Shown here piece after piece: positions 58,737 through 61,601 of a stretch of 64,000 nucleotides of DNA (within the stretch, counting starts at the first letter, position 1; every line of letters begins with the position of its first letter). The position numbers and the translations under genes are program-made. Source of the DNA: an uncultured Gammaproteobacteria bacterium. GTDB taxonomy: Bacteria > Patescibacteriota > Patescibacteriia > Magasanikbacterales > GWA2-37-8. The notes under the pieces were generated by a model. The model was not told the DNA's origin, made no database searches, and saw nothing but the letters and a program-made list of their open reading frames with translations. The DNA lies in the NCBI GenBank assembly GCA_964540825.1, contig CAZINT010000003.1, forward strand, positions 19,250 through 83,249. Reading direction: 5' to 3'.

Positions 58737-61601
58737 TTAAACAACAATACTTACTAATTTTCCTTTGACGTAAATAATTTTTTTCGGTTCCTTGCCTTCG
58801 AGTTTGGCAATAATTTTATCAGTGGCAAGAGCCGCTTTTTTAATTTCATCTTCAGCAAGATCTTTTGACACCATAATTTCGTCACGGACTTTACCGTTTA
58901 CTTGAATTACGAGCGTAAACATATCATCAACAAGCCACTTCGCGTCAGCGGTTGGCCAGGCCGCGAGCGCAACACTTCCTTCGTTATGCAGCACTTCACT
59001 CCAGAGCTCTTCGGCAATATGCGGCGCAAACGGTGCTAAAACTTTAATCAACATTTCATACACTGTTTTGGCAACGTTTGTGAAACCACTTATCTCATTA
59101 ATAAATTCCATCATCTTCGCTACCGACGTATTGAATTTCATTTCATCAATATCCGTTGTAACTTTAGCGACCAAACGATGCGCTAATTTATATTGCTCTT
59201 CAGAAATTTCGGATTCGTCAATCGTAATTTTTTCTTGCAGGTTCCATACTTTCTCAAGGAAGCGATACACACCCACCACACCATTGGTGTTCCAAGCAAC
59301 AGCCTGATCAAACGGACCCATAAACATAATATAGGTACGCAGCGCATCCGCACCAAACTCGGCAACGATTTCATCCGGGTTCACGACGTTGCCGCGGCTT
59401 TTACTCATCTTCTCGCCATCTTCAGCTAGAATGATGCCGTGCGACGTGCGTTTTTTGTACGGCTCAAGCGTGGGCACAAGCCCCTGATCAAACAGAAATT
59501 GATTCCAGAAACGTGAATAGAGCAAATGGAGCACCGTGTGTTCGTTCCCCCCATTATACCAATCAACAGGTGCCCAATATTGTAATTTTTCAGATGCAGC
59601 AAAGGTTGTATCATTATGCGGGTCCATATACCTGAGCCAATACCAACTTGACCCGGCCCAGTTTGGCATGGTGTCAGTTTCGCGCTTGGCCGGACCAGCG
59701 CATGCGGGACAAGTCGTGGTTACCCAATCGGTGATTTTAGAAAGCGGTGACTCACCGGTGTCGGTTGGCTCATACTTTTCTACTTTAGGAAGCGTGAGCG
59801 GCAGCTGATCTTCCGGGACAGGCACATAACCACATTTGTCGCAGATAATAATCGGGATTGGTTCGCCCCAATAGCGCTGGCGCGAAAAAACCCAATCACG
59901 CAGTTTGTAATTAGTTTTGGCAACACCGAATTTCTCGGTAATTTTTTCTCGGGCCTCTTTGGAAGTTAGACCGGAAAACTCTCCGGAATTAATCAAAACA
60001 CCATCGTCAGGCAGCGCCATTCCACCGGATGAAAACCAATTCCATTCAAAAGGTCCGTCAACCACATTGACGAATTTACCAACGCCCGCAGCCGGAATCC
60101 ATACCGGATCATGTTTGTCGCTTTCGACCGCTTCCACCGCATTCTTTGTTTCATCGTCGAGCTCAAAATACAGCGGATGAATTTCGGCATACCGATTTTC
60201 ATCTTTATGCGCTGCATAGTAGGTGGTATGAAACTCAACACCAAGCGATCGAACAAAACGAATATTTGTATACCCTGTTTCCTCCCTAATTTCCCGCTTC
60301 GCTGCCTCAACCACATCTTCTCCCTCTTCTACCCCACCAATAATGAAGGTGTGTGGCAGTCGACTGCCCCAGACCGCACCTTTCCAGGAAAGCATCAAAA
60401 TCGCCCCATCGCTCTTGCGACTGATGACGGCATGCACTGTCTTGCGGCGGACTGTTTTTTTTCCCAGAATGGGAGGGTTAGCTGTTTCAGTAAATAGCGG
60501 TGCAACTACCTGCTTCACGGGTAAATTATATTTTTGCGCAAAATCAAAATCGCGCTCATCGTGCGCGGGCACGCCCATCACTGCGCCCGTACCAACAGTC
60601 GCCAAGACGTAATTAGTAATTAGCACAGGAACAGATTCGCCCGTTGCCGGATTGGCAGCCGTGACACCGGTCATCATACCAGTTTTTTCCGGCTCTTCAC
60701 GCGTGTTCATAACGGCCCTGGCGGCAATGACTTCGTCAATGTAGGCGGTAACCCCGACTGTGGTTTGCCACCCTGCTTCGAGCCATTTTTTGGCAACCTC
60801 GGGGGCAATCGCAATATACGTAACACCGAACAGCGTATCGGGGCGCGTGGTAAAAACGGTTATCGAATATTTTCCATCGGGCTGCCCGGCCACCTGAAGA
60901 GGAAACGTAATTTCGGCGCCCTCGCTTTTGCCGATCCAATTTTGCTGCTGCGCTTTGGCTTCGGGAATATAATTTACTTCTTCAAGCCCTTGCAATAATT
61001 TATCCGCGTACTTGGTAATCGCCAGCATCCATTGTTCTTTGTTGCGCGCTTCTACGGGCGTTCCACAGCGCTCGCAGCAGCCGTTCACCACTTCTTCGTT
61101 GGCTAGACCGATCTTATCTTTTGGGCACCAGTTAATGGGCTGATTTTTTTTGTAAGCAAGACCTGCTTTAAAAAATTGTAAAAATAACCATTGCGTCCAT
61201 TTGTAATATTTAGGGTCAGTTGTATCAATTACACGTGACCAATCAAAACCAAAACCGAGCGACTTTAATTGACGGGTAAACGTAGCAATATTTTCAGCCG
61301 TAACTTCGGCTGGCGGTCGACCGGTTTTAATGGCGTAATTTTCGGTTGGAAGTCCAAAAGCATCAAAACCGATTGGATACAAAACATTAAACCCTTCCAT
61401 TCGTTTTTTGCGCGACACCACGTCCATGGCCGTGAAAGGGCGCGGATGGCCCACATGAAGACCGGCTCCCGATGGGTATGGAAATTCAATCAATGCGTAA
61501 AATTTTTGTCTTTGCACACCATCGCTCGCTGCAAAAGTTTGCTGTGCATCCCAATACTTTTGCCATTTCTTTTCAATCGCCTCGGGGTTGTACTTTTTCA
61601 T
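58737..61601 (-). CDS. leuS: Leucyl-tRNA synthetase carrying an inserted Nudix hydrolase domain.
   Basis: HVGH and KMSKS motifs. Editing-domain markers TTRPDT and AHDERD. Between the editing domain end (..LPVKQVV) and GVLINSGEF there are about 165 aa instead of the roughly 20 in E. coli LeuRS. The insert contains a perfect Nudix box, [23 protein letters not shown]. Confidence 0.9.
   Translation of the reverse strand: [954 protein letters not shown]

Follow-up and report, generated by a model that had tools for sequence, protein, structure and literature searches.

A predicted Nudix hydrolase module nested in the CP1 editing domain of a patescibacterial leucyl-tRNA synthetase

Results

The leuS locus and the nested Nudix module

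The DNA analysed in this study, hereafter called the window, is a stretch of 64,000 nucleotides from contig CAZINT010000003.1 (assembly GCA_964540825.1). Its gene leuS, located at 58737..61601 (-), is an open reading frame (ORF) of 954 amino acids (aa) including stop, and encodes a bacterial-type leucyl-tRNA synthetase (LeuRS) that hosts a nested Nudix domain; all features described below also lie on the (-) strand. According to the ORF list of the window, the reading frame is uninterrupted and contains no frameshift. The protein is identical to the NCBI entry P0121 and scored 962 bits against the model TIGR00396 leuS_bact (cutoff 548.4), with the match falling into two stretches split by the insert. 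By phmmer, the LeuRS of Thermus thermophilus (1H3N) was aligned end to end with the 954-aa protein (E=8e-205). The Pfam domains found were the class I catalytic domain, the editing domain PF13603 (188.8 bits), NUDIX PF00293 and the anticodon-binding domain.

An earlier note on this DNA had described a Nudix insert at 60030-60500, placed after the CP1 editing domain, and had proposed several checks, among them a PF00293 search of the insert alone, an alignment with T. thermophilus LeuRS, a structure prediction of the full protein and a search for the same insert in related LeuRS. Each of these checks spoke for a nested Nudix domain, and the module was located at 60015..60500 (aa 368-529, 162 aa), a position that we call site A. 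The placement after CP1 had to be corrected, however, because the module lies inside CP1, where it replaces a 13-residue loop (T. thermophilus residues 364-376). The alignment to 1H3N breaks at query residue 367 (T. thermophilus 363) and resumes at query residue 530 (T. thermophilus 377), a net gain of about 149 aa; the T. thermophilus editing domain spans residues 224-417. The PF13603 model is likewise interrupted by the insert at position 146 of 185, whereas it reaches position 183 in the relative P0169, which has no insert at site A.

The PF00293 match covers aa 385-505 (60087..60449) with 48.2 bits in the context of the whole protein (E=1.4e-12), and the excised insert reached 52.6 bits; the gathering threshold of the model is 21.1. 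The 23 residues of the Nudix box, [23 protein letters not shown], lie at aa 422-444 (60270..60338). The box fits the pattern GX5EX7REUXEEXGU exactly and contains all catalytic Glu residues and the Arg, in agreement with the textbook box read in the earlier note. It is followed by the X-loop region (60192..60221), in which Y461-Y462 stand at +17/+18 after the box and the family motif HKDENR occupies aa 465-470.

The module was modelled with AlphaFold2 (AF2) from a 33-sequence alignment, which gave a predicted local distance difference test (pLDDT) of 92.9, a predicted template modelling score (pTM) of 0.87 and a beta-grasp/alpha-beta-alpha topology. A Foldseek search of the Protein Data Bank (PDB) with this model returned 545 matches at E<=0.001; all the matches listed were Nudix proteins, the top ones had a probability of 1.00, and the target-normalised template modelling score (TM-score) against Nudix structures was up to 0.75. 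The AF2 model of the full-length LeuRS had a pLDDT of 88.5 and a pTM of 0.75, and residues 361-540, which include both junctions, reached 84-97 pLDDT per 10-residue block. According to this prediction, the module forms an ordered lobe of an otherwise intact LeuRS and is not loosely attached. An ordinary CP1 expansion lacking the Nudix fold was excluded.

The GC content of the insert (0.46-0.49) falls inside the range of leuS (0.39-0.54), so a recent horizontal acquisition of the insert in the source genome was rejected. Promoter-like sites that might drive separate expression of the Nudix part from within the gene were no commoner than in shuffled sequence.

The motifs of the host protein are in place. 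The HIGH motif of the synthetic active site (HVGH, aa 49-52, 61446..61457) is kept in 118 of the 120 homologues compared, and the KMSKS motif (aa 731-735, 59397..59411) in all 120. The N-terminal part of the CP1 editing domain (aa 220-372, 60486..60944) corresponds to PF13603 profile positions 1-146 of 185, and carries the threonine-rich editing-site motif TTRPDT (aa 251-256, 60834..60851), which is intact here and present in a slightly relaxed pattern in 110/120 homologues. About 20 residues before the insertion point lies the editing-site motif AHDERD with its conserved Asp (aa 346-351, 60549..60566), of which D348, R350 and D351 of the HDxRD core are invariant in alignment A2. After the insert, the C-terminal part of CP1 starts with [16 protein letters not shown] at query residue 530 and extends to approximately aa 568 (59898..60014). 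Then follow two CxxC knuckles, CDKC (aa 587-590, 59832..59843) and CPAC (aa 631-634, 59700..59711), and the anticodon-binding domain PF08264 (aa 807-918, 58848..59183). With both the synthetic (HIGH, KMSKS) and the editing (TTRPDT, HDxRD) motifs intact, leucylation and editing are predicted for this enzyme.

Compared with canonical bacterial LeuRS (1H3N/2BYT of T. thermophilus, 4AQ7/4ARC of Escherichia coli), the protein shows the same class Ia architecture with CP1, CxxC knuckles, anticodon-binding and C-terminal domains. It differs in having the 162-aa Nudix module instead of the 13-residue CP1 loop, and in having no leucine-specific domain ahead of KMSKS (about aa 725-735, about 59397-59420); T. 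thermophilus has this domain, and its residues from about 594 to 636 have no counterpart in the alignment to 1H3N. Of 43 PDB sequences with matches at E<=1e-20, none is annotated with a module of this kind. In still shorter relatives (769 aa, e.g. P0202), the GVLINSGEF segment of CP1 is missing as well.

Recurrence and conservation of the module

The full-length LeuRS was searched against 5.8 billion proteins, and the counts were taken over the 120 best full-length clusters. A Nudix domain was found at the same site in 93 of these closest clusters. The informative source names were all from Patescibacteria, comprising Magasanikbacteria, Uhrbacteria, Paceibacterota, Parcubacteria, Zambryskibacteria, Moraniibacteriota and Berkelbacteria; the taxonomy of the relatives is that of the submitters' labels, some of which are clearly automatic mislabels. 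Among species-representative genomes, the same insert was present in two independent metagenome-assembled genomes (MAGs), L001 and L002, with 94% and 82% identity across the insert region. The genome scan was made from a single protein and thus covers close relatives only, and is not a measure of the full taxonomic spread. The contigs of both MAGs (CAZECR010000021.1 and CAZWKA010000007.1) are titled 'uncultured Gammaproteobacteria', probably an automatic mislabel, and the labels 'Kapabacteria' (P0154) and 'Udaeobacter' (P0225) look similarly odd.

A strict Nudix box was observed in 91 of 96 modules. Within these 91, box positions 1, 7, 15, 16, 19, 20 and 22 never change, positions 8-14 and 18 are free to vary, and the overall identity among modules is only about 34%. 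In alignment A1, composed of 33 diverse sequences with a mean column identity of 39%, the invariant residues are G61, E67, R75, E76, E79, E80, G82 and W140. Comparison of the window with its two closest relatives by the Nei-Gojobori method gave dN/dS values of 0.05 (L001) and 0.074 (L002) for the insert, against 0.04 for the core. The Nudix module is thus under purifying selection about as strong as that on the synthetase core, and the low value of the core supports an essential role of the LeuRS.

A profile search with the Nudix module over 1.84 billion representatives gave 181 representatives at E<=1e-30 and 1,842 at E<=1e-10. Among the 116 listed new matches of at least 250 aa, the LeuRS core was recognised in 101, and the remainder are mostly LeuRS fragments. 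Two kinds of apparent variants were rejected. Five entries that looked like split LeuRS genes (P0004, P0013, P0027, P0028 and P0051, each a short Nudix plus editing-domain match on a long contig) are truncated or frameshifted gene calls, and two apparent longer variants labelled 'Deltaproteobacteria' (L067 and L070) are ordinary LeuRS in which the match was merely extended upstream.

Stand-alone relatives and other hosts

Among the matches shorter than 250 aa, about 21 look like complete stand-alone proteins (about 126-247 aa) without LeuRS flanks. Those inspected, 156-183 aa in length, have their own start and C-terminus as well as the N-terminal 'NPPxxGKKxxxR' segment of the module. Stand-alone proteins are 40-54% identical to nested modules (44% to the module of the window), whereas the median identity between nested modules is 31%. 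Since stand-alone-to-nested identity exceeds this median, the two forms are interleaved in one Nudix family. The stand-alone members P0285, P0390 and P0391, named 'MutT/NUDIX family', share with the nested module the NPPxxGKKxxxR strand, the box, HKDENR and the C-terminal Trp helix, but are separate genes.

The closest of these stand-alone genes lie directly upstream of leuS, an adjacency documented for three stand-alone clusters. P0285 ends 2 nt before a leuS of 951 aa, encoded on the same strand, that itself contains a nested Nudix. P0390 lies upstream of an insert-free 807-aa leuS on the same strand, with otherwise identical synteny in two independent assemblies, and P0391 upstream of an insert-free 828-aa leuS, again on the same strand. 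Loci with a stand-alone orthologue directly upstream of leuS are L082 (GCA_040384245.1, 8001-11494), L083 and contigs of JGI 3300071358. The gap of about 530-580 bp between the stand-alone Nudix gene and leuS in L082 had no Rfam match, which does not support a leader RNA there. Among the other insert-free leuS loci examined, only L040 has a Nudix ORF nearby, a generic one that lies about 1 kb downstream (46 bits); the P0179 locus has none.

The Nudix family is not exclusive to LeuRS. P0383 (643 aa) is a class II prolyl-tRNA synthetase (ProRS) with the same Nudix family, its box slightly degenerate, between the anticodon-binding and C-terminal domains, and P0376 (1318 aa) is a protein of the M17 leucyl-aminopeptidase family with nested GNAT, Nudix and GNAT domains. 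Two tandem double-Nudix proteins were also among the non-LeuRS matches. The host bias is nevertheless strong, as nearly all the 116 listed larger proteins are LeuRS, whole or fragmentary, and the one further clear housekeeping host is the ProRS.

Exchange of the Nudix module and other inserts in LeuRS

Exchange of the module was assessed by pairwise identities among the 93 Nudix-bearing LeuRS (P0121-P0240), which is not a full phylogenetic reconciliation. The identities of the N-terminal and C-terminal parts of the core were strongly correlated with each other (Spearman 0.74), whereas those of the realigned Nudix module were not correlated with either core part (0.00 and -0.09). For pairs with cores 80-90% identical, module identity was bimodal (quartiles 0.29 and 0.76). 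The cores of P0223 and P0190, for example, are 95% identical and their modules 35%, while the module of P0223 is 62% identical to that of P0234, with which it shares a core identity of 75%. P0213 and P0219 have cores 77% and modules 38% identical, and each of their modules has a 62-72% identical partner in a LeuRS of only about 61-62% core identity. Simple vertical inheritance of the insert is ruled out by the zero correlation between core and insert together with these incongruent pairs. Because such uncoupling could not be produced by rate acceleration alone, we concluded from the identity patterns that the Nudix cassette at this one site has apparently been replaced or swapped on repeated occasions.

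Domain mapping combined with the 120-sequence alignment revealed five insertion hotspots in the LeuRS of the relatives (P0122, P0128, P0157, P0162, P0167, P0169, P0178 and others), given here in aa positions of the LeuRS of the window. Site C, at about aa 236-245 at the start of CP1, holds one or two extra Nudix modules in relatives. Site A (aa 364-530) is occupied by Nudix, by HAD, or by Nudix then HAD. Site B, at about aa 590 just past the CDKC knuckle, is empty in the window but holds an alpha/beta serine hydrolase (PF06821) in 32 sequences, and site B-prime, at about aa 634 past the CPAC knuckle and also empty here, holds HAD in P0122 and P0184. Site D (about aa 667-669) holds a module of about 181 aa without a Pfam match and, in P0260, another Nudix.

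At least eight module combinations were observed, built from Nudix, HAD (PF13419), alpha/beta hydrolase and two modules without a Pfam match. Whereas insert-free LeuRS relatives are 769-839 aa long, the largest architecture, that of P0157 with Nudix, HAD and alpha/beta modules, reaches 1358 aa. Three Nudix modules are present in P0247, P0248 and P0255, and multiple ones also in P0254 and P0316. P0122, whose core is 88% identical to that of the LeuRS of the window, has an additional HAD module at site B-prime. The HAD motif I, FDFDGV[ILV], is kept in 17/17 HAD modules and GHS[LM]G in 23/29 alpha/beta modules, so that, judged by these motifs, both types look catalytically competent. The best NCBIfam match of the HAD module was the pyrophosphatase PpaX, at superfamily level only (24 bits vs a cutoff of 218). 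Two modules had no Pfam match at E<=1: the site-D module of about 181 aa (P0141, P0153, P0220 and P0228), which follows 'RY.DP.N...F', and a distinct module of about 100 aa at site A of P0228. The Nudix insert of the window belongs to this wider set of hydrolase cassettes nested in LeuRS.

Discussion

Nature of the module and its possible link to LeuRS

Few enzymes are known to be as conserved as aminoacyl-tRNA synthetases, and those of bacteria seldom acquire an additional catalytic domain. We are highly confident that the Nudix module described here is real, folded and catalytically competent; a pyrophosphohydrolase activity is suggested because the catalytic residues are invariant and the dN/dS of the insert is as low as 0.05. 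Fusion together with conserved adjacency is a classic genomic signature of functional association. Because the module is fused to LeuRS, its closest stand-alone relatives adjoin leuS and a second aminoacyl-tRNA synthetase, ProRS, serves as host, a tie to aminoacyl-tRNA synthetase chemistry is suggested, and we lean, by a small degree, towards a Nudix that is functionally coupled to the synthetase and not neutrally co-located. Our overall reading takes the protein to be the housekeeping LeuRS of a Patescibacteria (candidate phyla radiation, CPR) bacterium with a whole Nudix domain nested in a surface loop of CP1; together with the coupling and the substrate proposed below, we put it at a little under an even chance.

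Substrate

No substrate could be assigned by homology, since the NCBIfam, PDB profile and Foldseek matches are mixed and only at superfamily level. In Nudix enzymes the X-loop, about 16-18 residues past the box, has Tyr in ApnA hydrolases, Pro in ADP-ribose pyrophosphatases and SQPWPFPQS in NADH pyrophosphatases (PMC5389931); the Tyr rule is that of Dunn et al. 1999, as reviewed in PMC5389931. We found Tyr or Phe within +16..+18 after the box in 90/91 modules, with Tyr in 64/91, a signature that is only correlative. K at +22 was present in 74/91 modules and N at +25 in 67/91. An ADP-ribose-type Pro, which stands about 15-16 residues past the box in those enzymes, was found at +14..+17 in 0/91 modules and the NADH-type QPWPFP in 0/120 proteins. 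The NuCoA motif LLTxR[SA]x3Rx3Gx3FPGG upstream of the box, which marks coenzyme A pyrophosphatases, was also found in 0/120 proteins.

A dinucleoside polyphosphate of the ApnA type is favoured as substrate because of the X-loop aromatic, the lack of the ADP-ribose, NADH and coenzyme A motifs, the host bias to two aminoacyl-tRNA synthetases and the adjacency to leuS; this is the single most likely function, but it stands well short of an even chance. The LeuRS would be bifunctional, charging tRNA-Leu and hydrolysing a nucleoside-diphosphate-linked compound. Diadenosine tetraphosphate (Ap4A), Ap3A and Ap4N form when the enzyme-bound aminoacyl-adenylate meets ATP or other nucleoside triphosphates, and the tethered Nudix would clear these dinucleoside polyphosphates where they are made, a plausible idea that the earlier note had already raised. 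The neighbouring stand-alone gene would be the probable donor for the nesting and for later cassette replacement, through recombination across the conserved LeuRS flanks. With known Nudix ApnA hydrolases (Aquifex aq_158 3I7U, human NUDT2 4IJX, lupin 1F3Y, E. coli RppH/NudH) the module shares the fold (target-normalised TM-score 0.68-0.75), the box and the X-loop aromatic. It is, however, only 16-21% identical to them, and NudI, NUDT15 and ADP-ribose pyrophosphatase match it at least as well.

Several further observations weigh against this reading as a whole. The NCBIfam equivalog models RppH, NudE, NudI, YtkD and NudC scored 17-24 bits against cutoffs of 95-169 (the NudC model 19.7 bits vs 158). 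The best PDB match in both sequence and fold was an uncharacterised Enterococcus faecalis protein (2AZW), after which NudI, NUDT15, ADP-ribose pyrophosphatase, Ap4A hydrolases and RppH scored similarly. The X-loop aromatic is Phe as often as Tyr, and the signature is correlative. LeuRS is not known as one of the strongest Ap4A producers, as LysRS and PheRS are. The same Nudix family is nested in the M17 aminopeptidase with GNAT domains, and two more distant stand-alone relatives do not adjoin leuS. The adjacency to leuS could, moreover, be a trace of where the module came from and not of what it does. Finally, the HAD, alpha/beta and Pfam-unmatched modules in the same and other LeuRS loops fit a permissive scaffold.

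Alternative explanations

That the module is an active house-cleaning or salvage Nudix with no mechanistic tie to leucylation, carried because LeuRS loops tolerate domains, is the main rival explanation, which we regard as possible rather than probable. Embedding in an essential, constitutively expressed gene would secure expression and retention in a tiny genome. The five hotspots with unrelated modules in at least eight combinations and up to three Nudix per protein are what such tolerance would leave, and the exchange of the module independently of the core, its occurrence with GNAT domains in the M17 aminopeptidase, its homology to generic Nudix enzymes only and the location of the distant stand-alone relatives away from leuS point the same way. 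These observations are countered by the strong bias of hosts towards LeuRS and one ProRS, and by the closest stand-alone orthologues, which immediately precede leuS in the same orientation, also where the LeuRS is insert-free. The junctions, moreover, are predicted by the model to be ordered and not flexible tethers.

A broader form of coupling would make LeuRS, and occasionally ProRS, of Patescibacteria a docking platform for swappable Nudix, HAD and esterase cassettes that together form an extra covalent tier of quality control; we consider this unlikely. Here the Nudix would destroy adenylylated by-products or nucleotides derived from non-cognate adenylates, the HAD, a phosphatase or pyrophosphatase, would remove phosphate or pyrophosphate, and the alpha/beta esterase would take the acyl group off mis-acylated species. 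Lineages would exchange the cassettes through recombination with the donor gene kept beside leuS.

The substrate might instead be RNA, if a Nudix positioned on CP1 acted on the 5' end of tRNA-Leu or on other RNAs, either turning a 5'-triphosphate into a monophosphate as RppH does or removing NAD or Np4A caps. Both LeuRS and ProRS bind tRNA and CP1 handles the tRNA acceptor end. The weak best NCBIfam match is indeed RppH (24 bits), and the PDB matches include RppH and the decapping effectors AvrM14 and oomycete WY-Nudix, with Nudt16-like matches in the double-Nudix relatives. Yet these scores lie far under the cutoffs (24 vs 116 bits; the RppH models gave 16-24 bits against cutoffs of 116-259), they are no better than those of NudI, ADP-ribose pyrophosphatase and Ap4A hydrolases, and the stand-alone and M17-nested copies have no tRNA-binding host. 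An RNA-directed function is accordingly rather improbable.

Microcin C is met by hydrolytic immunity, in which the MccF and MccH enzymes act on adenylate mimics. By analogy, the cassettes might destroy LeuRS inhibitors that mimic the aminoacyl-adenylate (agrocin-84-like or microcin-C-like), with an arms race driving the swaps. The core-uncoupled exchange, the diversity of the modules and their multiple copies do resemble the dynamics of conflict systems. The dN/dS of the module is nevertheless as low as that of the core, with no diversifying selection in the two comparisons, and neither an inhibitor nor a biosynthetic context turned up around leuS at the loci examined. Nudix enzymes are not known to cleave acyl-phosphoramidate adenylate mimics, which also counts against such a role, and we judge it quite improbable.

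An inert structural or tRNA-binding insertion that keeps the Nudix fold is very improbable: slightly degenerate boxes occur in 5/96 modules and in the ProRS-nested copy, but a structural role would not keep REx2EE, and the catalytic box is invariant in 91/96 modules at about 34% identity. The insert is far beyond what chance would produce. That a Nudix gene of its own was fused to leuS by an error of assembly or by a frameshift can be practically dismissed, as the ORF is continuous and LeuRS resumes in frame on both sides, the same arrangement occurs in the independent MAGs (94% and 82%) and in 93 full-length clusters, the insert is unremarkable in GC with a dN/dS of 0.05, and no support for an artefact was found, the frameshifted fragments in databases belonging to other contigs.

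Comparison with known systems and significance

Of the two nearest parallels, one is the NadM-Nudix/NMNAT-Nudix fusion, which joins a HIGH-motif nucleotidyltransferase to an ADP-ribose/NAD pyrophosphatase (PMC7824862; NADM_SYNY3 appears in PMC5389931). In both cases an adenylate-forming enzyme of the HIGH superfamily is covalently joined to a Nudix for an adenylylated metabolite. The known fusion, however, is end to end and of the ADP-ribose type, whereas the Nudix described here is nested in the editing domain of an aminoacyl-tRNA synthetase and has no ADP-ribose Pro. The other, a precedent for a class Ia aminoacyl-tRNA synthetase with an extra enzymatic domain, is IleRS with GNAT, a named exception family (NF040702, 'ileS_w_GNAT'). 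It concerns another synthetase and an acetyltransferase, and the LeuRS of the window, with 66.4 bits against a cutoff of 1999, is not a member. Duplication-fusion of Nudix domains is cited in PMC5389931, and two or three Nudix per polypeptide also occur in the LeuRS relatives, but there at separate loops and not in tandem.

The earlier note knew of no description of this architecture. We likewise found no publication on a Nudix nested in LeuRS or another aminoacyl-tRNA synthetase in the full-text literature searched, which leaves out most subscription-journal papers; in the review of the Nudix clan (PMC5389931) the words tRNA and synthetase are absent, and a beta-grasp survey mentions aminoacyl-tRNA synthetases solely for the TGS domain. 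The architecture itself, on the other hand, is widespread in Patescibacteria and has been deposited in public entries under plain LeuRS names (e.g. Magasanikbacteria UniRef). Such proteins are labelled LeuRS, 'class I tRNA ligase family protein', 'NUDIX domain-containing' or 'alpha/beta fold hydrolase', which bears on their annotation.

The LeuRS described here thus carries a selectively maintained, predicted second active site inside its proofreading domain. The more surprising part is that an aminoacyl-tRNA synthetase accepts swappable hydrolase cassettes at multiple sites, with a donor-like gene upstream. If the substrate is of the Ap4A type, nature would have fused an alarmone source to its sink in this protein, which would offer a clean experimental handle on the dinucleoside polyphosphates made by aminoacyl-tRNA synthetases. 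If it is not, the family would be a striking case of ultra-small CPR genomes packing accessory enzymes into essential genes. Should LeuRS be a docking platform, it would represent an unrecognised modular extension of aminoacyl-tRNA synthetase proofreading in minimal-genome organisms. The hotspots would also show protein engineers which LeuRS loops naturally accept an inserted domain.

Neighbouring genes

Immediately upstream of leuS, at 61686-62549 (-), lies a gene for an Fpg/MutM-like DNA glycosylase, read from its translation by the PELPEVET N-terminus and the C-terminal zinc finger. As a neighbour belonging to GO-system repair, it raises a possible MutT-like (8-oxo-dGTPase) role; none of the other leuS loci examined shows this adjacency. 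On the downstream side of leuS, in the same orientation, the translations indicated an ORF resembling a polysaccharide deacetylase (57816-58712) and a membrane protein resembling ComEC (56216-57739), which have no obvious link to the nested module. Elsewhere in the window there are two adjacent 88-nt tRNA-Ser genes at 18902-18989 and 19018-19105 (-), one of which has, according to ARAGORN, the unusual anticodon ACT (A34).

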